Below, one piece after another: positions 1-10,681 of a stretch of DNA of 10,681 nt. Where the stretch lies: positions 1 to 10,681 of IMG/VR virus record IMGVR_UViG_2713896775_000011. One strand, given 5' to 3'. Numbering within the stretch: the first letter of the stretch is position 1; every line of letters begins with the position of its first letter. The notes under the pieces are model-generated. The model did no database searches. It was not told where the DNA came from and saw only the letters and a list, made by a program, of their open reading frames with translations. Made by a program: the position numbers and the translations under genes. The DNA is from a virus. Taxonomy: Duplodnaviria; Heunggongvirae; Uroviricota; Caudoviricetes.

Positions 1-258
1 GGAGGCGTACCGAATATTGGCGATATCCGCATCACTGGTGGAGATGGAGGCGACGGTCAGTCCGGAAATATCGGCGTCAGCGGTGAAGGCGGAACATCGC
101 ACTGGGGCGGCGGTGGACGCGCAGGCGCTGGCGGTGGTGTTAGTGGTAAGGCATATGGTTCAGGTGGCGGTGGCGCATACGATGCCGGTTATAGCGGAAC
201 CAGTATGACAGGCGGGAAAGGTGCTGCTGGGATTTGTATTATCGAGGAGTTTGCATAA
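1..258 (+). CDS. Tail fibre protein, C-terminal fragment (5' end lies outside the window); glycine-rich distal region
   Basis: Frame 1 is open from the window edge to TAA at 256-258 and translates to GGVPNIGDIRITGGDGGDGQSGNIGVSGEGG...GKGAAGICIIEEFA. The stop overlaps the ATG of the downstream assembly gene (TAATG), the usual fibre/chaperone arrangement. Assignment rests on position and composition, not on a recognised motif. Confidence 0.5.
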   Translation, partial: GGVPNIGDIRITGGDGGDGQSGNIGVSGEGGTSHWGGGGRAGAGGGVSGKAYGSGGGGAYDAGYSGTSMTGGKGAAGICIIEEFA

Positions 259-668
259 TGAATGCGTCATATGCAGTTATTGAAAATGGGATGCTTGTGA
301 ATGTCATTGTCTGGGATGGCGAGGATGAATTCACAGTGCCGGATAATCAGCAGCTCATTAATATTTCTGATATCAGTGAGCATCCCGGAATCGGCTGGGC
401 GTATTCAGACGGGGGATTTACTGCGCCGCTCCCTCCGGAACGTTCTCATGATGAACTGGTAGCTGACGCTGAACAGAAAAAACAGTCGCTGATAGACGCA
501 GCAATGACCAATATCAGCGTGATTCAGTTAAAGCTGCAGGCCGGGCGCAAACTGACGCAAGAAGAAACTACCCGACTTAACGTTGTGCTGGATTATATCG
601 ACGCTGTGACGGCAACAGATACCAGCACCGCACCGGATGTCATCTGGCCTGAACTGCCGGAGGAGTAG
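258..668 (+). CDS. Tail fibre assembly protein (Tfa / P2 gpG-like chaperone), 136 aa
   Basis: ATG at 258-260 (the ORF track start at 234 is a TTG). The C-terminal half (...AEQKKQSLIDAA...TATDTSTAPDVIWPELPEE) matches the conserved Tfa C-terminal domain ending in a (D/S)TS-APD-I-WP motif; the N-terminal ~60 aa is divergent. Stop TAG at 666-668. Confidence 0.8.
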   Translation: MNASYAVIENGMLVNVIVWDGEDEFTVPDNQQLINISDISEHPGIGWAYSDGGFTAPLPPERSHDELVADAEQKKQSLIDAAMTNISVIQLKLQAGRKLTQEETTRLNVVLDYIDAVTATDTSTAPDVIWPELPEE

Positions 669-795
669 GCCATTCAATATCTGGCGCACTGGAGGTATCA
701 ACCAGCTCCAGTGCATCCAGATAATCCAGCCACAGATTAAACTGCACTTTTCATCATCAGGCAATCGTCCAGGCGCGAGCCTGGATGCTGGCATC
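640..795 (-). pseudogene. Remnant of a second, inverted tail fibre assembly gene (tfa'), 5'-truncated and frameshifted
   Basis: Minus strand 750->640 translates KVQFNLWLDYLDALELVDTSSAPDIEWPTPPAVQAR*, the canonical Tfa C-terminus. It is preceded by three in-frame TGA codons (759-751); an upstream Tfa-like segment (...LPDDEK) sits in another frame, implying a frameshift near 751-757. Its 3' end overlaps the + strand tfa by about 29 bp, convergently. Confidence 0.45.
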
Positions 796-827
796 TCTGC
801 CCAATTTAAATTTGAGAGGTAATTATG

Positions 828-1303
828 TTAACAGTTAATCCACCAGTATGTGCCGGGTGCCTGCGGGTAAGTGGCGGCGGCAACCTCGTGAACCATCCCC
901 CAATCCAGAGCTGTGGAGGCATTGGCTATGGTGGCGGCGGAGATAACCTCCTTCCACTCATTGCGGCTCTTACTGAGCTCAATCTGACTCTCCAAAATAT
1001 CGACAAAACGCTCCAGGTCATTATTGAGACACGCGCTCCACTCACTGACGCGTGAGTGATCCACGCTTGGGCCCATCAAGCCCCAGTGAAAAGGATGCAG
1101 TAAGAACCGACTCCCAGGATTCGCCTTACGTTCAGACCCTGCAAGAAAAATGATATTAGCGACTGATTCAACATTGCTAAGGTTATGGGTCTTTACTGGG
1201 ATTGGTAGGGCCTTTAGAAAGTGATAAGCAGTAAAACCTGCAACGAGGTCACCGCCCGGACTGGAAATGTAAATGTTTAACTCAGTCGCCCCCTGATTGA
1301 TAG
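828..1303 (-). pseudogene. ClpP-fold (Clp protease-like) serine peptidase, 5'-truncated fragment
   Basis: The minus-strand ORF contains NIYISSPGGDLVAGFTAYHF...VESVANIIFLAGSERKANPGSRFLLHPF...ALDWGMVHEV, which aligns with the ClpP core (YINSPGG...AG...Y...GQAASMGAFLLTAG...SRVMIHQP...EYGLVD), including the Ser and His positions. Only about 25 residues precede the SPGG motif, against roughly 90 in ClpP. The only in-frame start is a GTG at 1358 with no SD, lying inside the invertase remnant. Confidence 0.55.
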
Positions 1304-1543
1304 CTCCGAGAACTGATTGTTGAACGAACAAAAGCTGGCCTGGAAGCTGCTCGCGCACAGGGACGAATTGGTGGACGACGTCCCAAACTTACACCAGAAC
1401 AATGGGCGCAGACGGGTAGGTTAATAGCGGCAGGGGAATCGCGCCGGAGGGTTGCCATAATTTATGATGTTGGGATATCTACGCTTTACAAAAAATTCCC
1501 AGCGACCAGAGATAAGAATTCCGGCACGCATGGCCGGTTATAA
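1304..1543 (+). pseudogene. Serine-recombinase DNA invertase (Pin/Gin/Hin family), C-terminal remnant only; catalytic domain absent
   Basis: Frame 2 from 1304 (directly after TAG 1301-1303) to TAA 1541-1543 reads LRELIVERTKAGLEAARAQGRIGGRRPKLTPEQWAQTGRLIAAGESRRRVAIIYDVGISTLYKKFPATRDKNSGTHGRL. This closely matches the C-terminal hinge and HTH domain of Gin/Pin as I remember them. There is no start codon, and no frame upstream carries the N-terminal catalytic domain. Confidence 0.85.
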
Positions 1544-1628
1544 CCGTGCTGGCCGTGTGTATCGAGTACGGTCACTTTTAACGGTGCTGTAGCACGGTCA
1601 GTTATGGTGGTGTATTACGGAAGACGAA

Positions 1629-1650
1629 GCGGGCAATGGCCCGCTTTTCT
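1629..1650 (+). terminator. Rho-independent terminator-like hairpin (gcgggc-aatg-gcccgc followed by TTTTCTT)
   Basis: Perfect 6-bp GC-rich stem at 1629-1634 / 1639-1644 followed by a T-tract on the + strand. It lies just downstream of the invertase remnant and abuts the stop codon of U. Confidence 0.4.
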
Positions 1651-2099
1651 TATATCGAAAGGTTGGTTTTCACCAGAGAGAAGAGATCGTCGGTGGTGGT
1701 TTCAGCCAGCTTTTCCCGTATGTCCTCGCTTACCCGTTTCAGGTTGAGCGTGAAATCAATTTTCTTTGCCTTCCCGTCCTTAAAAAACTCCGTCCGGTTT
1801 TGCGTGATCTGCTCAATTACATACATGCCGTAGATCCTGCCCGTGCCTTCTATCAGGGGCCACGGGCGCCCGGAAAAAGCCATAGTTTCCAGCATGACAA
1901 GCGACACATCACCGCCGCTTATTTCGGGGTACAGCGTGCCGCTGAGTACGAACGGTTCTTCATCTGCGCCGATGAACTGATAGCGCGGGGATTTCCCCAC
2001 GCGATCGTTTTTGACGTGCCGCCAGGAGTTGGTTTTATTCGCACTCTGGTAAGGTGTGGTTTGCAGTGAAAAGGGGAACATCCCCAGAATCATCATCAT
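1650..2099 (-). CDS. U: Phage tail protein gpU (P2 U-like), 149 aa
   Basis: MMMILGMFPFSLQTTPYQ...SWRH...FIGADEEPFVLSGTLYPEISGG...RPWPLIEGTGRIYGMYVI resembles P2 gpU as recalled. It sits immediately downstream of the tape measure gene with a 9-nt gap and an AAGG SD. Confidence 0.85.
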   Translation of the reverse strand: MMMILGMFPFSLQTTPYQSANKTNSWRHVKNDRVGKSPRYQFIGADEEPFVLSGTLYPEISGGDVSLVMLETMAFSGRPWPLIEGTGRIYGMYVIEQITQNRTEFFKDGKAKKIDFTLNLKRVSEDIREKLAETTTDDLFSLVKTNLSI

Positions 2100-2108
2100 G
2101 ATATTGCC

Positions 2109-5054
2109 TTAGACGTGATCGGTCAGTTGGGAGCGCTTGCGCCGGTCGGCCTGTTGCTTCGCTAACGCAAGTTCTTCGCGCACGCGCCTGATAATGGTTT
2201 CTTCATCCAGTTTCTGGCCGCTAAAGTCGAAGTTAAGGTTATATACATCGCCACCCGGAGCAGGCATCAGCGCAGCGACGGAAGCCGCAGACGGAGACGC
2301 CGAAACAGGCATCCGTGCGGCGGGCTTCTCAACCTGCCAAGGCGTAACGGAAGCGATCAGCGATCCGGCCTGCTGCGTCACCCAATCCGTAAGGGATGGT
2401 AGCTGGCGCTGCGCCTGCTTAAGCGGTTCCGAATATCCGCCCCGGATCGGGATATAGGGCTGCTTATTCTTGAAGACGATTTCGCCGGGCCCGTCTTTCT
2501 TCTCCGTGGTATTGGTGGCGATCTTGTCCAGGCTGCTGCTCATCTTCGGCACGATGTTGGCCGGGCCCTTGAGCGAGTTAATTAAGCTTTCCTGCTTTTT
2601 CTGCTGGTCAATGGCCTGCTGTTGCTTCTGGTTGGTTTTCTTCTGCTGATCGTCTTTCGGCGACCAGTTCCAACCCTTTTTAACCATTTTCTTTTGCTGC
2701 GGATCCCACTCCCAGACAACAGGGTCTTTGTGCATACTTTCCGCAGCTTGCTGCGCTGCTTTTGTTGCGTCGGGGATGGCGCCGAGTTTCTCAAGTATCC
2801 ATCCAATCCCGTTAGCGACGGCTTGAATAGGTAGCGTCAGCGCGCTAATTGCGGCCCCTACAACCTTGCCGAACGTTTCCCCGGCACTGGTGCAGGATGC
2901 CAGCGCTTCACTGGAAAACTGGATCGGTTCCAGCAGTTTGGTAAACCATTCCCAGACCCCACTGATCGCGTTGCCGATACTGTCAAAAATCGGGGCCAGT
3001 GGTGCAAATACGGCGTTAAATGCCTGCGTGATTGGTTGAAGGCCAGTCATCAGGCCGGTAAAGAAGCCGCTGAAAAACGCCTGTATGGGTTGCCAGAATT
3101 TAATGACGGCCACTGCTGCCGCAGCAAAGAGCGCAATCAGCCCCCAGACGGGCGCAGAAATACCAGCCAGTAGAGTAATAAGCGGGCCGAATACCATGCG
3201 ACCGGCGCTTAATAATGCCTGCATAGGCGAGCCAGCAAGCCACTGGAACGCACCACCCAGGCGCATTACTCCGCCAGTCAGCCGCGCTATTCCTCCTTCC
3301 CCAGCCAGCGTGGTGAAGCTGAGGCGAACAAGTGCCATCGGGCCCAGCACTGCGCCGATGGACAGCATCAGGCCACCCACGACAACCAGCAACGCGCCTA
3401 TGGCTGCGGTGACTTTCATGATTGAACCAACCAGCGCCGGGTTTGCCTCAACCCAACGCCGGACGCTGCCAACCACCTTACTGACGGTAAGCATGATATC
3501 CATCAGCGGTTCGCGGAGCGTTTCCCCTGCTGAACTGAATGCGTTAACCGCGCCGGTTTTGGTCAGTTGCCACTGAGCAGAAAGGGAGGCTTTATTGATA
3601 TCGGATTCCCGATTCATGGAACCTTTAGCGGCAGCACCCTGCGTCAGTTCGATCTGGCGCCGAAGTTCGGGCAGGTTGTTCGCAAGTTTCTGTGCATCAT
3701 CCCCGAACTCTTTACCGAAAATCTGGGTAAGGTTGGCTACCTGCTTATCTGGTGCAAGTTTTTTGGACGCTTCCAGCACTGAAATGATCGTGCCCATCGC
3801 GTCCACTGACATGCTTTTCTGGACTTTCTCAGCATTGACGCCGATCTCATCCAGAGCACCCAAAAATTTATCGCTTTGTACTGTGGCGATCGACAGTTCA
3901 CGCACCATTGCATTGGTGGCGCTGGCTGCAACTTCGGCAGGTGATCCAAGCGTCAGAAAGGTGGAGCCCAGCGCGGCGGCTTGCTTGTAATCCAGTTGGC
4001 TGGCAAGCCCGCCAACGCGCTGGAGCACGTCGATAATATCGGAGCCTTTCGACTTCGCGTTATCGTCCAGGTAGTTTATGGCGTCGCCCAACTGTTCAAT
4101 ATTCTGGGTAGGGATTTTATACAGCCCGGCAATCTTACCGAGACTTTCAGAAAGCTGATCGGCGGGCAGTTCAAAGGCTACCGAAGCCTTTGCCGCCATG
4201 CTGGCAAAAGCCAGCAGATCGGCTTTTTGCTTTTGCCACGGATCATTGCTGTTTGCGACGCCCATACGCGCGCCACCTTCGACCAGTGCGGCATAGTCAA
4301 CAGCACCGTTTGCCATTGGCAGCTTTTCGCTGGCATCCATGATCGCCCGCTGCATTTCTTCATATTGCGGGGTGCGGTTGCCGCTGTCGTCACGCAAGCC
4401 GTTTACCTGTTTGGCTACGCCCTTCATTGCGTCTTCAAGGCTGCTGTAGGATTTAACCGCAGCGGCGACAGGTGCTAGGGTTGCCGCCCCTACTGCGGCG
4501 GTTTTCATCCCCCCGCTCATCATCTTTTCGCCGGTTTCTTTGGCGCGGCTGTAACGGGCCTGCGCCTGGTTAACAGCGTCAAGCCGTCGCTGCTGTTCGG
4601 CAAGCTGGCGGTTGTATTGCGCGGTGCGCTGGTTGATCTGTTCCGTCGCCCGGCTGGCGCTGCTGATCGCAATGCCTTCGCTGTAGAAGCTGGCCCGCAA
4701 CTGGTTAAGCTGCGTCTGCTCGCCTTTCTGCTGCTGGGTTAACTGGCGAATGGCTGCACGTTGCTGATTGAGGGCGGCAACCTGTTCGGCGCTGCGCTGG
4801 CGTAACGGGCCATAGGCCGCCGCCATTTGCCGGGCCTGTTCTTTCGCCTGGGCCAGTTGTTCGGTGGTTTTTTTATTGGCTGCGGTGAGGCGGTCAAAGC
4901 TGGTTGCCTGACGCTCAAGCCCTTTAATGCTGGTTTTAGTCTGGTTGATTTGAGACGCCAACGCGGCGGCACTCTGGCGCGCCGCGTTGACAGGGCGGGA
5001 CATATTATTCAGGGCGCTGAATGCCACCCTGATATTTAAATTGCGGTCTGCCAT
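2109..5054 (-). CDS. T: Tail tape measure protein (P2 gpT-like), 981 aa
   Basis: Long ORF in the T position between E/E' and U. It has a coiled-coil, Q/A-rich N-terminus, a central hydrophobic helix-rich segment and a K/Q-rich C-terminal part. ATG at 5052-5054 is immediately preceded by the E' stop; a GGAG-type SD lies upstream. Confidence 0.9.
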   Translation of the reverse strand: MADRNLNIRVAFSALNNMSRPVNAARQSAAALASQINQTKTSIKGLERQATSFDRLTAANKKTTEQLAQAKEQARQMAAAYGPLRQRSAEQVAALNQQRAAIRQLTQQQKGEQTQLNQLRASFYSEGIAISSASRATEQINQRTAQYNRQLAEQQRRLDAVNQAQARYSRAKETGEKMMSGGMKTAAVGAATLAPVAAAVKSYSSLEDAMKGVAKQVNGLRDDSGNRTPQYEEMQRAIMDASEKLPMANGAVDYAALVEGGARMGVANSNDPWQKQKADLLAFASMAAKASVAFELPADQLSESLGKIAGLYKIPTQNIEQLGDAINYLDDNAKSKGSDIIDVLQRVGGLASQLDYKQAAALGSTFLTLGSPAEVAASATNAMVRELSIATVQSDKFLGALDEIGVNAEKVQKSMSVDAMGTIISVLEASKKLAPDKQVANLTQIFGKEFGDDAQKLANNLPELRRQIELTQGAAAKGSMNRESDINKASLSAQWQLTKTGAVNAFSSAGETLREPLMDIMLTVSKVVGSVRRWVEANPALVGSIMKVTAAIGALLVVVGGLMLSIGAVLGPMALVRLSFTTLAGEGGIARLTGGVMRLGGAFQWLAGSPMQALLSAGRMVFGPLITLLAGISAPVWGLIALFAAAAVAVIKFWQPIQAFFSGFFTGLMTGLQPITQAFNAVFAPLAPIFDSIGNAISGVWEWFTKLLEPIQFSSEALASCTSAGETFGKVVGAAISALTLPIQAVANGIGWILEKLGAIPDATKAAQQAAESMHKDPVVWEWDPQQKKMVKKGWNWSPKDDQQKKTNQKQQQAIDQQKKQESLINSLKGPANIVPKMSSSLDKIATNTTEKKDGPGEIVFKNKQPYIPIRGGYSEPLKQAQRQLPSLTDWVTQQAGSLIASVTPWQVEKPAARMPVSASPSAASVAALMPAPGGDVYNLNFDFSGQKLDEETIIRRVREELALAKQQADRRKRSQLTDHV

Positions 5055-5515
5055 TTAGTGATCTCCACCACTGCGCGCAGCCGCCTGATCACGCCATAAC
5101 AGTATTTCCTGTACCGTCATGGCGTCCATCTCTACCGGCCGCCAGTGGAATATGACGGCGATATCTGCCATCAGGTCTTCTATGCGTTCGCAGGGGCATC
5201 GGATGATTCGTTGCCCGTATCCGTCGCGGTCAGATCCGAAGAGGGTTGCAAAAAATCAACCACCGCGTTGGCTAGCTGGCAAAAATCCCAGGTATCCATA
5301 CGGGCAATCTCATCGGCGGTTAGTGCCGGAGCGGTAACGCGGGGCAGCAGAATAACCAGCGCGTCATAGTTGGAAGTCAGCACGTCATAGGCTTTTAAGC
5401 CGCGCAGTGATCCAGCCTGTTTAAGCACGGAAGTGATCGCCACTTCGGTGATTTTGGTCTTACCGCGCGTAATAGGGGCGGTAAGAATAACGGTGTTTTC
5501 TTTGGTCTTGCTCAT
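5055..5515 (-). CDS. E': gpE+E' fusion product made by programmed -1 ribosomal frameshift (about 152 aa)
   Basis: The slippery heptamer TTTTTTG lies on the minus strand at + coordinates 5249-5255, inside E codons 88-89. The -1 frame from 5249 stays open for 64 codons (ATLFGSDRDGYGQRIIRCPCERIEDLMADIAVIFHWRPVEMDAMTVQEILLWRDQAAARSGGDH) and stops at TAA 5055-5057, directly abutting the T start codon. Confidence 0.7.
5180..5515 (-). CDS. E: Tail assembly chaperone gpE (P2 E-like), 110 aa
   Basis: MSKTKENTVILTAPITRGKTKITEVAIT...LRGL...ALVILLPRVTAPALTADE resembles P2 gpE. AGGAAA SD upstream; stop TAG at 5180-5182. Confidence 0.85.
   Translation of the reverse strand: MSKTKENTVILTAPITRGKTKITEVAITSVLKQAGSLRGLKAYDVLTSNYDALVILLPRVTAPALTADEIARMDTWDFCQLANAVVDFLQPSSDLTATDTGNESSDAPANA
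5249..5255 (-). promoter_or_regulatory. -1 programmed frameshift slippery site (TTTTTTG) for E/E'
   Basis: Heptamer read directly on the minus strand within E; its position near the E 3' end and the open -1 frame match the P2 E/E' and lambda G/GT paradigm. Confidence 0.65.
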
Positions 5516-5529
5516 GGTGCCGGGTTTCC

Positions 5530-6045
5530 TTATAGGCCGATGTTAGCGCGGTGTTTTTCCAGCACATCCACACCGGCAACTTTGTAGATCATGTTGAGCA
5601 CATCAACTTCGATAATCTCTTCGCCGTTGATGGTCAGCTTGTAATAGGTGTTTTTCAGGGTGTACTTATGCGAAGTGTCATCCCCGACTTTTGCCGAACC
5701 GGGATCCAGTTCAGTGAAGCGGCCACGCGTCTGGATTTCGCACGGTACAGCGTCGCCGGTTGCGTCGTCCTGATAGGAGCCAGCAAAACGTGTTTGCATC
5801 CCGTCCGCAGTGGTAACGCCCCATTTTTTCAGCAATCCGGCATCCAGACCGCCAAGCGTGATATCCATATCCAGGGCGCCAGCGTCGAAGCCAAGATCCA
5901 CCGCAACCGAACCCGGCATACCACCCGCCTGGTAGTCTTCGGTTTTTTTTGTGAGTTTGGCGGGGGTGATTTCCGGCACCATGCCGAAGTAGTTATCCCC
6001 GTCAAAGAACATATTGAAATATTTGAGTTTCTTAGGCAGTGCCAT
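5530..6045 (-). CDS. FII: Tail tube protein (P2 gpFII-like), 171 aa
   Basis: MALPKKLKYFNMFFDGDNYFGMVPEITPAKLTKK...RFAGSYQDD...LEKHRANIGL resembles P2 FII, including the ...HR.NIGL C-terminus. It lies 12 nt downstream of FI. Confidence 0.9.
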   Translation of the reverse strand: MALPKKLKYFNMFFDGDNYFGMVPEITPAKLTKKTEDYQAGGMPGSVAVDLGFDAGALDMDITLGGLDAGLLKKWGVTTADGMQTRFAGSYQDDATGDAVPCEIQTRGRFTELDPGSAKVGDDTSHKYTLKNTYYKLTINGEEIIEVDVLNMIYKVAGVDVLEKHRANIGL

Positions 6046-6057
6046 AAGCGCCCCCGG

Positions 6058-7251
6058 TTAGTTATTCACTGCGCTGGAAAACGTAGCGAAATATTCGTCG
6101 GTGAACTCCTGTACCAGGCTGAGATTTTCCAGCGGTGGAACAGGGGTGTAGTTGTACTTAATGGTCAGTTGACCATTGCGCAGGGTTTCCGAGGTATTCG
6201 GTTCCGGGTCATACCAGCAGCGGGCGCCCAGCAGCTTGCCAGCCGTCACATATGAGGTCAGCTTCTTATTGATGCCGTCCACAATGTCCTTAACCAGCGA
6301 CGGGGTAAGCGGTTTATCAACATAGGCGAAATGGGCTTCGGCGACGGTATCCGCAACGATCTGCGCGGTTCGGGTATAGCTTTCGAAGATATACGTTTCC
6401 GCGTCGCAGGTACGCGATCCCCAGATGCGGTAGCCGTCCTGCTTGATCAGCGTGGTAACGCCTGCTGCGTTCAGTTCGTCGGCGTCGGTATCGGTGCCCT
6501 GCAACGTGAAATAGATATCCCGATCCATCCCCAGCACGTTATTAACGGGCACGTTGGAAATGGTTTTATGCCAGCCCTGCGTTGCGTCGATTTTGGCGCG
6601 CATCCCAACAGCATGGGCACCCACGGGCACGGTGGCATTGGCCCCGGCGTTGGTGTCGTAGCAGATGAAATTAGGCCAGATAACCATCATTTCACGCTGG
6701 GAGAACTGTTCGCGGTATTCCTTCACTTCGGCGATTGTGTTGCAGCCGTTCGCAGCCACGTAAGCAAATGCGCGCAGCTTTTCGGCAATGACGCCGAGTT
6801 GTGCGGCTACCGCTTCCGTATCAAGCCCAGGAACAGCCAGTACACGCGGGCGCACGCCTACGCGCATTTCGGCAGACAGCAGCGCGTACATGCCGGTAAA
6901 GCGCCCGTTTGCATCGGTGCCGCCAATAACCAGTTGATCCTGTGTCTGTGCGGTACCGCCTTCTGGTGGAACAATTTTTGACGCATCGGCAACGCGGATC
7001 ACAATGGTTTGCGGGCTGGTCTGGTCTGAAATCGCTTTCAGGGTGGTAAACAGGGTGCCGGTTTTACCTGCCTTGCCCAGCATGTTAGCCACGCGGGTGA
7101 TCAGTACAGGGGTATCCAGCGGGAACGCTGTTTCGTCCGCATCATCAGCGGTGCAGACAACGCCGATCACCGCCGAATCAATGTCGGTGATCATCGTGCT
7201 AAGGTCGGTGGTTTCCGTGACGGTTACACCGTGATGGTAGTTAGTGGCCAT
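6058..7251 (-). CDS. FI: Contractile tail sheath protein (P2 gpFI-like), 397 aa
   Basis: MATNYHHGVTV...VIGVVCTADDAD...VPGLDTEAVAAQL...KLRAFAYVA...WHKT.SNV...YTPVPPLENL matches P2 FI (MSDYHHGVQV...) along its length as recalled. GAGG SD upstream of ATG 7249-7251. Confidence 0.9.
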   Translation of the reverse strand: MATNYHHGVTVTETTDLSTMITDIDSAVIGVVCTADDADETAFPLDTPVLITRVANMLGKAGKTGTLFTTLKAISDQTSPQTIVIRVADASKIVPPEGGTAQTQDQLVIGGTDANGRFTGMYALLSAEMRVGVRPRVLAVPGLDTEAVAAQLGVIAEKLRAFAYVAANGCNTIAEVKEYREQFSQREMMVIWPNFICYDTNAGANATVPVGAHAVGMRAKIDATQGWHKTISNVPVNNVLGMDRDIYFTLQGTDTDADELNAAGVTTLIKQDGYRIWGSRTCDAETYIFESYTRTAQIVADTVAEAHFAYVDKPLTPSLVKDIVDGINKKLTSYVTAGKLLGARCWYDPEPNTSETLRNGQLTIKYNYTPVPPLENLSLVQEFTDEYFATFSSAVNN

Positions 7252-7323
7252 GTATTTGCCTCGCCAGTTTAATGACTGCGAATATCATTGCGGCAATGGC
7301 AGGCCGATGCGATGAATAAGGGT

Positions 7324-7341
7324 TGTCAGCAACCTGCAACA
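7324..7341. promoter_or_regulatory. Ogr-type late-promoter activator site: dyad TGT-N12-ACA
   Basis: tgt(7324-7326)-cagcaacctgca-aca(7339-7341) matches the TGT-N12-ACA element of P2 late promoters. Its centre lies 81 bp from the FI ATG and 76 bp from the D ATG, between the two divergent genes. Confidence 0.4.
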
Positions 7342-7408
7342 ATGACGGGGCGTTGTTCATGCGCGCGCGCGTGGCGACGATGTACCCCATCATGATGAAG
7401 GGGTTGAT

Positions 7409-8527
7409 ATGGACACGACAGAAAACCGATATTCGCCGCGCCCGGCGTTCAGTATTGAAATTGAAGGTAATCAGCTTACGGCGCTGGATAACCGGCTGAT
7501 CTCCCTTTCCCTGACAGATAACCGGGGCTTTGAAGCGGACACGCTGGATCTGACTCTGGATGATGTAGACGGGCAGGTAGCATTACCATCACGCGGCGCA
7601 AAGATATCGGTGGCGCTGGGCTGGGATAATGATCCATTGGTTTTTAAGGGCGTCTATACGGTTGACGAGATCGGACACGCCGGCCCGCCTGACCAGCTAA
7701 CGATCAGTGCCAGAAGTGCAGATTTCCGCGATACCTTCAACGTGAAGAGGGAATATAGCTGGCACGATATTACCGTGGGGGATGTGGTCGCCAGCATTGC
7801 CAGCCGCTACGATCTGCGTGCGGGTGTCAGCGAAGAACTGGCGAAGATTGAGATAGACCACGCCGATCAGACGAGTGAATCAGATATCAGCTTCTTAACG
7901 CGCATGGCCGAAATGCTGGGCGCGGTGGCAACCATTAAAAACGGTATGCTTCTGTTTATCACGCCGGGCAAGGGAGTGACGCAAAGCGGCAAGCCGTTGC
8001 CGGTGATCGAGATCGTCAGGTCAAGCGGTGATAAACATCGGTTTAACGTAGCTGACCGCGACGCGTACACGGGCGTAACTGCATACTGGCTTGATCTCAA
8101 CTTTGGCAAAAAACCATCCACTACCGTGAAGAAAACCACCCGCAGACGACGAACCAGCCAGGCCAAAAAGAAAGAGCCCGCATCAAGCAAAAAAGAGGGT
8201 GATTATCTGGCCGGGGCCGAAGGTAACGTTTTTGTTATCCGTAAAACCTTCAAGACGGAAAAGGCGGCGAAGCGGGCCGCTGCGGCTAAGTGGCGGGAGT
8301 TGCAGCGTGGAGCGGCGACGTTCAGCATCACCCTGGCGCGTGGCCGCGCGGATTTGTACCCGGAACAGCCTGCCAGCGTCTACGGCTTTAAGTCCACGAT
8401 CGACAGTGGGAACTGGACGATAACGCGGTGCGTTCACGATATTGGCGGGGGAGGGTTTACCACATCGCTGGAACTGGAAGTAAAAATCGACGACTGGACA
8501 GCGGAGAGTGACGATTCAACGTCTTAA
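7409..8527 (+). CDS. D: Phage tail/late protein gpD (P2 D-like), 372 aa
   Basis: MDTTENRYSPRPAFSIEIEGNQLTALDNRLISLSLTDNRGFEADTLDLTLDD... is characteristic of the P2 gpD family. AAGGGG SD 5 nt upstream of the ATG. Confidence 0.9.
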   Translation: MDTTENRYSPRPAFSIEIEGNQLTALDNRLISLSLTDNRGFEADTLDLTLDDVDGQVALPSRGAKISVALGWDNDPLVFKGVYTVDEIGHAGPPDQLTISARSADFRDTFNVKREYSWHDITVGDVVASIASRYDLRAGVSEELAKIEIDHADQTSESDISFLTRMAEMLGAVATIKNGMLLFITPGKGVTQSGKPLPVIEIVRSSGDKHRFNVADRDAYTGVTAYWLDLNFGKKPSTTVKKTTRRRRTSQAKKKEPASSKKEGDYLAGAEGNVFVIRKTFKTEKAAKRAAAAKWRELQRGAATFSITLARGRADLYPEQPASVYGFKSTIDSGNWTITRCVHDIGGGGFTTSLELEVKIDDWTAESDDSTS

Positions 8528-8575
8528 GCGTTATACTTGCGTTGATATTAACCAGTCCTGAAAGGAGGCCCGCGT

Positions 8576-8818
8576 ATGGCAATGCGCTGTCCTCGCTGCC
8601 GTGCAATAGCAAAAACCAGAACCAGCGTTGAGCTGAGTTTGCTTGTACGGCGCAGCTATCACCAGTGTCAAAATATGTTGTGCGGGTACTGTTTCACCAG
8701 CATGACGGAAATAGACGGTTCACTAAATCAGACCCAGCCAGCGCCCGGCGCGATGGTGCCACAAGAAGCTTTTCCACGAAGTCACCACGGCGAAGATCAG
8801 TTATCGCTGGCATTATAA
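8576..8818 (+). CDS. ogr: Ogr/Delta-family zinc-finger late-gene transcriptional activator, 80 aa
   Basis: MAMRCPRCRAIAKTRTSVELSLLVRRSYHQCQNMLCGYCF has the Cys-x2-Cys...Cys-x4-Cys Ogr signature and resembles P2 Ogr (MFHCPLC...RYHQCQN.NC). Strong AAAGGAGG SD 7 nt upstream. Confidence 0.85.
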   Translation: MAMRCPRCRAIAKTRTSVELSLLVRRSYHQCQNMLCGYCFTSMTEIDGSLNQTQPAPGAMVPQEAFPRSHHGEDQLSLAL

Positions 8819-8820
8819 AA

Positions 8821-8850
8821 GCGGCCCCTAAATGGGGCCGTTATTTATTT
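8821..8850. terminator. Bidirectional rho-independent terminator shared by ogr (+) and the convergent membrane-protein gene (-)
   Basis: gcggcccc-taaa-tggggccg hairpin followed by TTATTTATTT on the + strand and by CTTTTA on the minus strand. The minus gene's stop codon (8845-8847) lies inside the T-tract. Confidence 0.6.
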
Positions 8851-9492
8851 CATGTTTATGGCTACAAACCTTGATCGTGTAAGGTTTTCACTTAAATATT
8901 GATCGCCACTATCCCCGGCCTTTTTGCCCCAGATATCACACGAAGATTCACCGCCCTGAAAAACGTAGCCTTTGGTTAAAATGTCGTTAGTCACATAAAT
9001 ATGATCGAATAAACCAGCCTTCCAAGCCCTGTTAGATTCCCCGTGATTGAAATAGCTGATGCATACGGACTGAACGGCACTTTTCGCCTGTAGTTCTTCT
9101 ATGCTGTCAAAATTGAATGCAACTACTAAGGCTTTGTTGTAAATGACTGGTTTAACTGTGAGATTCAGATCTCCGAGCGCCTTGGATAAGGCAAGGGGAA
9201 GTTGATTAGTCGCTTCTGAAAAGTCGATAGTGGTTGTTAATTGTTCTTTGGGTTTAGCCGCGGGTTGTGTTTGTTCTGTGTTTGTCACTGCTGGCTGGGG
9301 TTTATTTTCAGCAACAGCTTTCGGCGCGACTGGTGCAACCATTGAACCTATGATTGCTGCCAAGAGGCACACCCCGAAGTAGATAGCAGATGAGCGCTTT
9401 CGATTTGGCATAAAAACCCATTTGGGATTGATTAGCCCAACCCAAAAAGCGATCCCAGCAACAGCGGCGATAACGGTGATGATTGTTTCCAT
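8845..9492 (-). CDS. Hypothetical membrane-anchored protein, 215 aa (two predicted N-terminal TM helices, Pro/Gln-rich linker, globular C-terminal domain)
   Basis: ATG at 9490-9492 with a GGAGGG SD 7 nt upstream. Hydrophobic segments IITVIAAVAGIAFWVGLI and AIYFGVCLLAAIIGSMVAPVA. The DNA looks clearly AT-richer than the flanking tail genes and fieF (by eye). No family recognised. Confidence 0.6.
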   Translation of the reverse strand: METIITVIAAVAGIAFWVGLINPKWVFMPNRKRSSAIYFGVCLLAAIIGSMVAPVAPKAVAENKPQPAVTNTEQTQPAAKPKEQLTTTIDFSEATNQLPLALSKALGDLNLTVKPVIYNKALVVAFNFDSIEELQAKSAVQSVCISYFNHGESNRAWKAGLFDHIYVTNDILTKGYVFQGGESSCDIWGKKAGDSGDQYLSENLTRSRFVAINMK

Positions 9493-9670
9493 TGAGTACC
9501 CTCCGTATTAAGGCGGGTATTATTGTCGATGGTGCTCAAAAACGGAACAGCCAAGCGCGGTGCGCCTGGCTGCTTCTTTGTCGAAGTGTAGTCAAAATGT
9601 AGACGAAGTTTAGAATAAATCCTTTTATTCCATTATGTTACTGGCTGGATTTCTTCACCATCCCTGTCTT

Positions 9671-9698
9671 CCCCCACATGATGTGGGGGTTTTTTTTA
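9671..9698 (+). terminator. Rho-independent terminator (cccccacat-g-atgtggggg followed by T9) with no + strand gene upstream in the window
   Basis: Perfect 9-bp inverted repeat followed by nine T residues on the + strand, about 80 bp upstream of fieF. Confidence 0.5.
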
Positions 9699-9778
9699 TC
9701 CTCAATTTGCCTGCTGCTTAATGCATTGCAGATGATTTGCTTCCGTTATACTAGCGTCAGTTGATAGCGGGAGTATTT

Positions 9779-10681
9779 ATGAATCAATCTTATGGACGGC
9801 TGGTCAGTCGGGCGGCGATTGCTGCGACGGCGATGGCTTCGTTGCTATTGCTGATTAAAATTTTTGCATGGTGGTATACCGGGTCGGTGAGTATTCTCGC
9901 CGCGCTGGTGGATTCGCTGGTGGATATCGGCGCGTCGTTGACGAATTTACTGGTGGTGCGATATTCCCTGCAACCTGCCGACGATAATCACTCGTTTGGT
10001 CACGGTAAAGCAGAGTCCCTCGCGGCGCTGGCGCAAAGTATGTTTATCTCCGGTTCGGCACTATTCCTGTTTTTGACGGGTATTCAACATCTGATATCTC
10101 CAACACCGATGACAGATCCAGGCGTCGGGGTTATCGTGACAATTGTGGCGCTAATTTGTACGATTATCCTTGTCTCGTTTCAGCGTTGGGTGGTGCGGCG
10201 GACGCAAAGCCAGGCGGTGCGGGCTGATATGCTACATTACCAGTCTGATGTTATGATGAACGGCGCAATTCTGCTGGCGCTGGGGTTGTCCTGGTACGGC
10301 TGGCATCGCGCCGATGCTCTGTTTGCATTGGGAATCGGCATCTATATTTTATATAGCGCGTTACGCATGGGATATGAGGCGGTACAGTCATTACTGGATC
10401 GCGCATTGCCTGATGAGGAACGGCAAGAAATTATTGATATCGTGACTTCCTGGCCGGGTGTTAGCGGCGCTCACGATCTTCGCACGCGGCAGTCAGGGCC
10501 GACCCGCTTTATTCAGATTCATTTGGAAATGGAAGACTCTCTGCCTTTGGTTCAGGCACATATGGTGGCGGATCAGGTAGAGCAGGCTATTTTACGGCGT
10601 TTTCCGGGATCGGATGTAATTATCCATCAGGACCCCTGTTCCGTCGTACCCAGGGAGGGTAAACGGTCTATGCTTTCATAA
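9779..10681 (+). CDS. fieF: Cation-diffusion-facilitator ferrous-iron/zinc efflux transporter FieF (YiiP), 300 aa
   Basis: [56 protein letters not shown]... matches E. coli FieF as recalled, including the CDF signature and the HxxxD metal site. True start is ATG 9779 (GGGAG SD 5 nt upstream); the ORF track start at 9761 is a TTG. Confidence 0.95.

Follow-up and report, generated by a model that had tools for sequence, protein, structure and literature searches.

A probable fossil of a Din-family invertible tail-fibre switch, with a truncated ClpP-like accessory gene, in a P2-like prophage of Escherichia coli

Introduction

The P segment of the e14 element of E. coli K-12 and its Pin invertase form a tail-fibre switch (stfP-tfaP / tfaE-stfE / pinE), a type of system to which Mu G/Gin, P1 C/Cin and Salmonella Hin also belong. 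Its parts are arranged as a constant part of the fibre gene, a crossover site, a variable fibre end, tfa, a convergent second copy (tfa') and an outward-reading invertase gene, and tfa and tfa' overlap by 29 bp. An intact switch is also carried by E. coli 1332KP (NZ_CM173849.1, hereafter L002), in a prophage of the same P2-like type as the one described here. The L002 switch consists of the fibre gene, a tfa of 197 aa, an inverted tfa' of 146 aa, a gp53-like alternative fibre end and a recombinase of 193 aa, with an inverted pair of crossover sites (TTCTCCCAAACCAACGTTTT) at 2121-2141 and 3945-3965, and it has no ClpP-like gene.

Here we describe the corresponding region of a P2-like (Senquatrovirus-type) prophage that is integrated next to fieF in E. 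coli. The window, by which we mean the whole 10,681-nucleotide stretch that was analysed, has the same order of parts as e14. An earlier note, made from the letters of the window alone, had proposed that the region is a decayed switch with a layout of the Mu G or e14 P type; all of the elements that it named were found, and L002 shows what the full architecture looks like in this type of prophage. With a probability of roughly 0.85, we conclude that an invertible tail-fibre host-range switch of the Din family (Pin/Gin/Cin/Hin) has left here a fossil that no longer functions. It is a case of ordinary prophage decay: half of the switch has been overwritten by a small ClpP-like accessory gene, and a deletion of 374 bp, apparently later, has broken this gene in turn.

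Results

The left end of the window (1..258, + strand) is the 3' end of a tail-fibre gene and encodes a glycine-rich, C-terminal receptor-binding end (PHROG tail-fibre families, E=4.5e-28). The whole gene is present in a sibling contig (L183), where it encodes a protein of 631 aa with Phage_tail_fib, Phage_fiber_2 and Gly_rich_2 domains. Its TAA stop codon (256-258) overlaps the ATG start codon of tfa, which encodes a tail-fibre assembly chaperone of 136 aa (258..668, + strand; Caudo_TAP, E=2.5e-21). Since this exact protein falls in a cluster whose 648 members are about 136-138 aa long, its length is normal for the family, and tfa is probably intact. It would be expressed, in this fixed orientation.

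Convergent with tfa lies the remnant of the inverted second chaperone gene, tfa', of which the last 35 codons and the stop codon are left (640..747, - strand; Caudo_TAP, E=3e-9). This remnant aligns with residues 112-146 of the L002 tfa' (146 aa) at 97% identity, and three in-frame TGA codons (751-759) lie directly upstream of it. The 3' ends of the two genes overlap by 29 bp, the same as in intact switches, e14 included. That only the last codons of tfa' survive had been noticed before; the number given then, about 37, is corrected to 35 by the alignment to L002. Only one fibre end and one tfa are present, rather than two convergent fibre-end/tfa pairs, and a tblastn search of the window with a gp53-like alternative fibre end gave no match at E<=1. 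A spacer (748..827) with a hairpin (CCAGGCGCGAGCCTGG, 769-784) separates the tfa' remnant from the stop codon of the ClpP-like gene. Its last part, 792-827, belongs to the 3' flank that is conserved together with the accessory gene unit: when the unit of L001 and L003 is compared with an unrelated context, L020, homology begins at the equivalent of window position 792.

The place where the alternative fibre end would sit is occupied by the remnant of a ClpP1-like accessory gene (828..1307, - strand), comprising codons 25-183 and the stop codon of a gene for 183 aa. The Pfam CLP_protease domain is matched above its cut-off both by the form in the window (E=3e-12) and by the full-length protein (E=5e-13). 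An AlphaFold model of the window ORF has the ClpP fold, with PDB 9uxt as the top Foldseek match (TM 0.84) followed by canonical ClpPs at a TM of about 0.75, and the protein also matches 9uxt in sequence (E=3e-36). The family match and the fold bear out the suggestion that a ClpP-like fragment stands in this slot, and 828-1303 thus does have ClpP-family similarity and is not a tail-fibre C-terminal domain. It is a fragment, as had been said, and not a random one: 87% of the length of an accessory gene remains, the intact 183-aa form of which occurs elsewhere. Positions 762-1307 are 100% identical to intact copies and carry no further mutation.

The ORF as called is longer (828-1358, - strand, 176 aa, GTG start), and only 828-1307 of it is native sequence. 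According to the ORF list, the remainder (1308..1358, - strand) is a read-through extension, antisense to the invertase remnant and reaching up to the GTG; it adds 17 foreign N-terminal residues, and the GTG has no Shine-Dalgarno sequence upstream. The catalytic residues Ser72 and His95 are invariant in the family alignment and are retained in the window copy. The Ser-His-Asp triad is incomplete: at the Asp position this protein has Ala, members of the family have Ala, Ser or Gly, and PpClpP1, a homologue discussed below, has Pro. In the same alignment the family begins about 38 residues after the start of the E. coli ClpP precursor, and the N-terminal axial loops are absent. This is a family of N-terminally truncated ClpP paralogues without the triad Asp.

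To the right of the ClpP-like gene, 78 residues of a Pin/Gin/Cin/Hin invertase remain (1307..1543, + strand), comprising the helix-turn-helix DNA-binding domain only (HTH_7, E=6.5e-12). They correspond to residues 116-193 of the 193-aa L002 recombinase (96% identity by tblastn). A domain search of the remnant found no Resolvase (catalytic) domain, whereas the intact L002 protein has both Resolvase and HTH domains. The invertase had been described as reduced to its C-terminal 80 residues or so; the reduction is real, and by alignment the number is 78. The 5' 345 bp of the gene are missing from the window, and no intact invertase is encoded here. In Hin, Gin and Cin, the 5' part of the invertase gene contains the Fis-dependent recombinational enhancer.

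Exact mapping of the flanks on E. coli CX12 showed that 374 bp are missing from the window at 1307..1308, with a microhomology of 1 bp (C) at the junction. The earlier note had supposed that one deletion removed the 5' ends of two divergent genes, and the comparison with CX12 bears this out; the junction, which had been placed at 1303/1304, is in fact at 1307/1308 (with an ambiguity of 1 bp), 4 bp further right. The deletion allele is present in at least five draft assemblies and in none of 5,426 complete genomes; GCA_021541255.1 and GCA_001309535.1 are examples of carriers. An assembly artefact can be dismissed, since independent assemblies have this allele with 100% identity. The deletion appears to be recent. 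In the undeleted cassette, pin begins at nucleotide 155 of pinE (K-12 e14 reference) and contains an internal stop codon, which suggests that the invertase was already dead before the 374 bp were lost.

The invertase remnant, which is 84% identical to pinE, has two origins. Positions 1308-1407 match the e14-type cassette with no mismatch, and positions 1413-1543 are the resident P2-like prophage's own gene; between 1391 and 1655 there is a single mismatch to the resident type, at 1412, a position that also differs from the e14 type. The right-hand recombination crossover is therefore placed within pin, at 1391-1407. The cassette that runs from the fibre end to the dead pin is 98% identical in e14-like (L003, L005) and lambdoid-remnant (L004) contexts, where the ClpP-like gene is complete (183 aa) and pin is already a pseudogene. 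The comparisons suggest that it entered the P2-like prophage by recombination. The left part of the region is imported from another prophage type, so that the invertase remnant combines two pin alleles in a mosaic. The left edge of the cassette coincides with the crossover site.

The surroundings are those of L002, with baseplate genes J and I and the fibre gene, and with gpU, T and E on the opposite strand; from 1308 rightwards the window is 97.8% identical to L002. The match of the backbone to L002, together with tfa' and invertase stubs in the same order and orientation, indicates descent from an intact switch, and the remnants match far beyond chance level. A terminator-like hairpin with a T-run (1626..1647, + strand), a consensus match only in a pattern scan, separates the invertase remnant from the convergent gpU gene (1650..2099, - strand; Phage_P2_GpU, E=4.7e-39). 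This is the first resident tail-module gene to the right of the switch and marks the right-hand limit of the region. The position of the FI-to-U tail block on the minus strand was considered as a product of the invertase and discarded, the same arrangement being normal in the invertase-less Salmonella phages SEN4 and SEN5. Elsewhere in the window, a PADLOC scan of the ORF at 8845-9492 gave no match.

No crossover site was found within 3 mismatches anywhere in the window, and the AAACCNNGGTTT core has only a chance-level match, inside gpD. The right-hand site is also missing in undeleted relatives. The position of the left site falls outside the window, and its state was taken from L183, which is 100% identical to the window: it is degenerate (CAATATCTTGGTCTGAGCGATG), with 6 of 22 positions changed. 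The right-hand crossover site, the alternative fibre end and the catalytic domain of the invertase are all gone, so the switch is locked, as had been anticipated.

The ClpP-like gene is a stand-alone accessory gene of many enterobacterial prophages. It is found after tfa, between lysis genes and terminase, beside the N gene and within a Mu-like tail module, and in every called-gene context examined it lies outside the head module, on the strand opposite to both of its neighbours. A census of 80 IMG/VR loci by ORF strand, in which spurious antisense ORFs contaminate the counts, contained no locus whose flanks share, for the most part, the strand of the gene. Neither the full-length nor the window protein matched any family of PADLOC-DB v2, and a literature search on ClpP-like prophage accessory or defence genes and on WP_016244976, the accession of the intact protein, returned nothing relevant. 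A promoter scan for the ClpP-like gene gave no convincing candidate in the window or in the intact cassette.

Discussion

Compared with e14, this region has lost the right-hand crossover site, the alternative fibre end, codons 1-111 of tfa' and the catalytic domain of the invertase; a ClpP-like gene stands in place of stfE, and the host element is a P2-like prophage. The few genomes compared suggest the following order of events. First, a unit some 650 bp long with an opposed ClpP1-like gene would have replaced parts of the switch in an e14-like or Mu-like element. Codons 1-111 of tfa', the right-hand crossover site and the alternative fibre end would have been lost in this step, as would the promoter and the first 51 codons or so of pin, and the segment would have been frozen in a single orientation. 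Homologous recombination would then have copied the cassette, from the glycine-rich fibre end through tfa, the tfa' stub and the ClpP-like gene to the dead pin, into the P2-like prophage; its left edge would lie where the fibre gene once had its crossover site, and its right edge within conserved pin, at 1391-1407 of the window. Finally, the recent 374-bp deletion at 1307/1308, across 1 bp of microhomology, would have removed the start codon, ribosome-binding site and first 24 codons of the ClpP-like gene, the intergenic region and a further piece of the pin remnant. At present, the fibre and tfa genes would be expressed from the late operon in one fixed configuration.

Could the segment nevertheless still invert, driven in trans by another Pin-family invertase that acts on cryptic crossover sites? 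Din-family invertases (Gin, Cin, Pin and Hin) complement one another across elements, and E. coli genomes often carry several of them, pin-like matches being present in 1,168 genomes. However, the search of the whole window for crossover sites gave nothing beyond the chance-level core, the right site is gone even in undeleted relatives and the left one is degenerate, and inversion would have nothing useful to swap in because the alternative fibre end is absent. This alternative is close to refuted. It is less far-fetched, although still unlikely, that the chimeric 176-aa ORF (828-1358) continues to be expressed from its GTG as a working ClpP1-like subunit. It stays open across the junction, its 160 retained codons are 100% identical to intact copies, Ser72 and His95 are still there, and the allele persists in at least five assemblies. 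In the AlphaFold model the ClpP fold is kept and residues 9-21 of the chimeric N-terminus form a helix with a pLDDT of around 85; residues 1-6, however, have a pLDDT below 50, and a model guided by the family alignment cannot report destabilisation. Transcription might be supplied by read-through from the late tail operon (FI to U), which is on the same strand, and this is conceivable since only on the + strand is the hairpin at 1626-1647 followed by a T-run. Against this, the deletion has taken the AAGGAG ribosome-binding site and the ATG along with the promoter region of the native gene, and it has cost the protein its first strand and part of its first helix; no purine-rich ribosome-binding site precedes the GTG at 1358. 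The perfect identity of what remains is equally explained by a recent deletion, and other broken alleles (one frameshifted in L001, and others in the cluster that encode 146 and 157 aa) suggest relaxed selection. The copy in the window is most likely a pseudogene that is no longer expressed.

The best PHROG match of the protein, to head maturation protease families (phrog_94, E=1e-27), and a match to NCBIfam Clp_rel_HeadMat (E=1.6e-13) raise the alternative that the gene is not an accessory gene and encodes a prohead (head-maturation) protease of a phage that has been displaced. The NCBIfam match, however, scores 51 bits, far under the cut-off of 120 bits. The protein is a stand-alone ClpP core of 180 aa without a scaffold or capsid fusion, its gene-called contexts place it away from the head module and opposed to both neighbours, and its nearest characterised relative is a cellular, tetradecameric ClpP1, all of which makes this origin very improbable. 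We retain the reading of the gene as an accessory gene that has landed in a dead switch.

That nearest relative, PpClpP1 of Pseudomonas plecoglossicida (PDB 9UXT), is like the prophage protein a ClpP paralogue of 183 aa in which the N-terminal axial-loop region is absent, Ser and His are conserved and the triad Asp is replaced. The two differ at the third triad position, where PpClpP1 has Pro and the prophage branch Ala or Ser, and in that PpClpP1 is chromosomal, in the P. putida group, whereas the enterobacterial branch is carried by prophages and the window copy is truncated. That PpClpP1 might itself be prophage-borne was ruled out by its chromosomal, non-phage neighbourhood, which is conserved throughout that group. 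PpClpP1 is reported to assemble into a homotetradecamer whose pore is wide and whose peptidase activity is weak; it needs Ser and His and can do without the third triad residue (PMC12900304). Its N-terminal truncation abolishes ClpX binding, so that it does not bind ClpX alone, and with canonical ClpP it forms more active mixed tetradecamers (PMC12900304). The double-heptamer assembly is experimental only for this homologue (PMC12900304).

By analogy, we tentatively suggest, as a possibility that we consider doubtful, that the intact 183-aa protein is a phage-borne modulator of the host ClpP machine, and that mixed tetradecamers with host ClpP could alter ClpXP/ClpAP degradation in the lysogen. 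Such a role would fit the occurrence of a single opposed gene in unrelated prophage types, the exchange of near-identical cassettes and the repeated inactivation of the gene (by the frameshift in L001, the deletion described here and the alleles of 146 and 157 aa). This pattern of spread and inactivation resembles that of a conditionally useful but costly accessory gene. If the suggestion is true, the prophage could profit through superinfection exclusion, through control of lysogeny or by interfering with its competitors.

For annotation, the calls of "ATP-dependent Clp protease proteolytic subunit" and "recombinase" at this locus should be corrected to remnants. The tail fibre is set in one host-range state, and phase variation is not to be expected. 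Conserved tfa and pin act as recombination handles, by which a fibre-end cassette and any cargo that has landed in it move among e14-like, lambdoid and P2-like prophages.

Accessory genes of P2-like prophages are known from the hotspots Z/fun and old/tin, which carry anti-phage systems (PMC9122126, PMC13586616). Clp, protease and invertase are not mentioned in these two papers, and the ClpP-like gene differs from the hotspot systems in having no PADLOC match. It is like them in being a single opposed accessory gene, swapped between elements by recombination, and in its site in the P2-like prophage, downstream of the fibre gene and tfa.

The switch is predicted to be locked

The P2-like prophage of E. 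coli 1332KP (L002), the backbone of which is 97.8% identical to that of the window from 1308 rightwards, carries a complete host-range switch. Besides the fibre and a 197-aa tfa, this comprises a 146-aa tfa' convergent with that tfa, a gp53-like sequence as the alternative fibre end, and a recombinase of 193 aa. Its crossover sites (AAAACCTTGGTTTGGGAGAAG and CTTCTCCCAAACCAACGTTTT) form an inverted pair; one is within the fibre gene, and the second immediately precedes the recombinase. No site of this type was found in the window at up to three mismatches, nor was any trace of an alternative fibre end. A sibling contig (L183) matches the window at 100% identity for 4,358 bp and reaches 2.2 kb further left; at the left-site position it has CAATATCTTGGTCTGAGCGATG, with 6 of 22 positions changed. 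Since the window lacks both a site and an alternative fibre end, and the left site of the sibling is degenerate, inversion is not possible, bearing out the proposal of the earlier note that the switch is locked.

All of the elements listed in that note were found. The 3' end of the fibre gene (1-258, + strand) is followed by tfa (258-668, +), the 136-aa product of which matches Caudo_TAP (E=2.5e-21). Although RefSeq flags tfa homologues as partial, we treat the gene as intact because the exact protein falls in a cluster of 648 members, all of about 136-138 aa. The tfa' remnant (640-747, on the opposite strand to tfa) retains 35 residues, 97% identical to residues 112-146 of the 146-aa tfa', and three in-frame TGA codons lie immediately upstream of it. 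The ClpP-like ORF occupies 828-1358 (-), and the invertase remnant runs on the + strand from 1307 to a stop at 1541-1543; its 78 residues are 96% identical to residues 116-193 of the 193-aa recombinase, with HTH_7 the sole domain left. Judged from these sequences, no part of the region works as a switch: a single orientation of fibre and tfa is left, and what survives of the ClpP-like gene and the invertase are remnants.

The window is assigned by its sequence to an E. coli chromosome, and fieF (9761-10681), to the right of the prophage end, shows 99% identity or more in 5,118 of the 5,427 E. coli records that match. The prophage, of which the window holds the right-hand part, is P2-like and of Senquatrovirus type; Salmonella phages SEN4 and SEN5 are its relatives (94% identity over 1452-9700). 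On the minus strand lie gpU (1650-2099), the tape measure (2109-5054), the E-type tail assembly chaperone (5180-5515), the tube (5530-6045) and the sheath (6058-7251). This FI-FII-E-T-U block (1650-7251) opposes gpD (7409-8527, +) and ogr (8576-8818, +), as well as the baseplate and fibre genes, a strand layout that differs from that of canonical P2. We considered whether the opposed block was a product of the window's invertase switch, but rejected this because SEN4 and SEN5 share the layout yet have no invertase; it is therefore a trait of the lineage.

Origin of the cassette and the final deletion

Positions 1-1310 share approximately 98% identity with a cassette that elements of other types also carry, namely two e14-like elements and a lambdoid remnant. 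The e14-like order is ymfQ, the stfP constant part, crossover site, glycine-rich fibre end, tfa, tfa' stub, ClpP-like gene and dead pin. In all these element types the ClpP-like gene is complete (183 aa, WP_016244976.1), and the recombinase is an annotated pseudogene without its N-terminus and with an internal stop. The cassette is colinear with e14 of K-12 up to the stfP crossover site and homology restarts at pinE nucleotide 155, pointing to replacement of the part between by the ClpP-like unit; tfa' codons 1-111, stfE, the right-hand site, the pin promoter and the first ~51 codons of pin would have been lost. The unit, from 36 bp past the stop to 62 bp before the start, is conserved in an unrelated E. 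coli element (L020); there it comes after a glycine-rich fibre gene, and pin is absent from the vicinity.

The sequence common to P2-like and e14-like elements has its left edge exactly at the crossover site. At the other end, 1308-1407 agrees with e14-type sequence without a mismatch but differs from L002 at 22 positions, whereas 1413-1655 agrees with L002 without a mismatch and differs from the e14 type at dozens of positions. This places a recombination crossover within 1391-1407, inside pin, the right edge of the imported cassette; the 78-codon stub is a chimera of e14-type and resident pin sequence. Just right of this interval, position 1412 is A in the window and G in both parental pin types; since PO06101 also has A, this is a private substitution of the recombinant lineage. 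In the e14-like element of E. coli EC1722-1 (L003), a gene for a GIY-YIG protein (5448-6221 of that locus) matching defence system PD-T4-3 (E=2e-140) directly follows the dead pin, in the slot of mcrA in K-12 e14, and is itself followed by a cytosine methyltransferase and then a type II restriction enzyme. The e14 end looks like a defence hotspot.

Four complete E. coli genomes (PO06101, CX12, CX08 and N2512) carry the prophage with the cassette, and all align to the window in two pieces. Exact mapping of the CX12 flanks shows the window to lack 374 bp at 1307/1308, where the microhomology amounts to 1 bp. The missing stretch held the ATG and codons 1-24 of the ClpP-like gene, its AAGGAG ribosome-binding site, an intergenic region of ~110 bp and, from the pin remnant, the first ~190 bp with the internal stop. 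The earlier note had one deletion truncating both genes; this describes the last step correctly, but the invertase was dead beforehand. Over 762-1307 the retained ClpP-like sequence agrees with intact copies at every position, which marks the deletion as recent. At least five independent draft assemblies carry the exact 176-aa chimeric ORF in this same setting, indicating that the deletion is not an artefact; none of 5,426 complete genomes carries it. A 7-bp direct repeat, CTGATTG, lies ~10 bp to each side of the junction (1291-1297 and 1313-1319); as both copies are kept, a simple slip between them was rejected as the route.

The window and CX12 are identical over 762-2400, and of the 25 positions at which they differ within the cassette, 24 lie in the fibre end and tfa (1-583, ~4% divergence), which suggests that the receptor-binding end underwent separate recombination or diversification.

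Could the truncated ORF still yield a ClpP-like product? The frame remains open and late-operon read-through on its strand is conceivable, but the native start signals are deleted and the GTG at 1358 has no ribosome-binding site ahead of it, making such a product unlikely. We regard the locus as a well-documented case of prophage decay and of cassette exchange via conserved tfa and pin flanks; the intact ClpP1-like family elsewhere is the sole part worth pursuing.

A prophage-borne ClpP-like family

The ORF matches Pfam CLP_protease (E=3e-12), and the best superposition of its AlphaFold model (pLDDT 82) is with PDB 9uxt (TM 0.84), followed by canonical ClpPs. The gene is rare (26 of 5,426 genomes); the PO06101 copy is independently frameshifted, and the protein cluster includes 146- and 157-aa alleles. 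Its homologues (50-99% identity) are spread across Enterobacterales, are present in Chromobacterium as well, and turn up in at least 124 IMG/VR viral contigs. Each of the six gene-called contexts examined shows a lone gene within a prophage, oriented against both neighbours. An Enterobacter P2-like prophage has it after tfa, and lambdoid prophages of Klebsiella (two homologues) have it between the lysis genes and terminase; in a Proteus-type phage it adjoins the N gene, in Pantoea it lies within a Mu-like tail module, and in Chromobacterium it follows a glycine-rich fibre gene. Such a pattern is the signature of an accessory gene. A head protease was rejected on account of these contexts, despite weak similarity to head proteases in PHROG and NCBIfam. 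The family had no PADLOC match, and a literature search found nothing tying it to phage biology.

In two unrelated loci, the Mu/e14-like tail module of L020 (2831-4588) and a Chromobacterium prophage (L013, 5001-8495), the gene is convergent with, and just downstream of, a Gly_rich_2 (glycine-rich) fibre gene, which hints at an old linkage between the two. Elsewhere in the window, a 215-aa ORF without assigned function (8845-9492, -) lies between ogr and the prophage end adjoining fieF, oriented against its neighbours, and may be another accessory gene; it matches only PHROG families of no known function, has no match in Pfam, NCBIfam or PADLOC, and carries a hypothetical-protein annotation in relatives.

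Ser72 and His95, both catalytic, are invariant across the family; the Asp of the triad is replaced by Ala, Ser or Gly, and the axial-loop region found at the N-terminus of canonical ClpP is missing. The nearest characterised relative is ClpP1 of Pseudomonas plecoglossicida (9UXT, E=3e-36), an N-terminally truncated Ser-His-Pro protein that assembles into a weakly active homotetradecamer with a wide pore, does not bind ClpX alone, and combines with canonical ClpP into mixed tetradecamers that are more active (PMC12900304). However, P. plecoglossicida ClpP1 is encoded by a chromosomal gene of the P. putida group and is not a phage gene, whereas the ClpP-like homologues examined here are prophage-borne.
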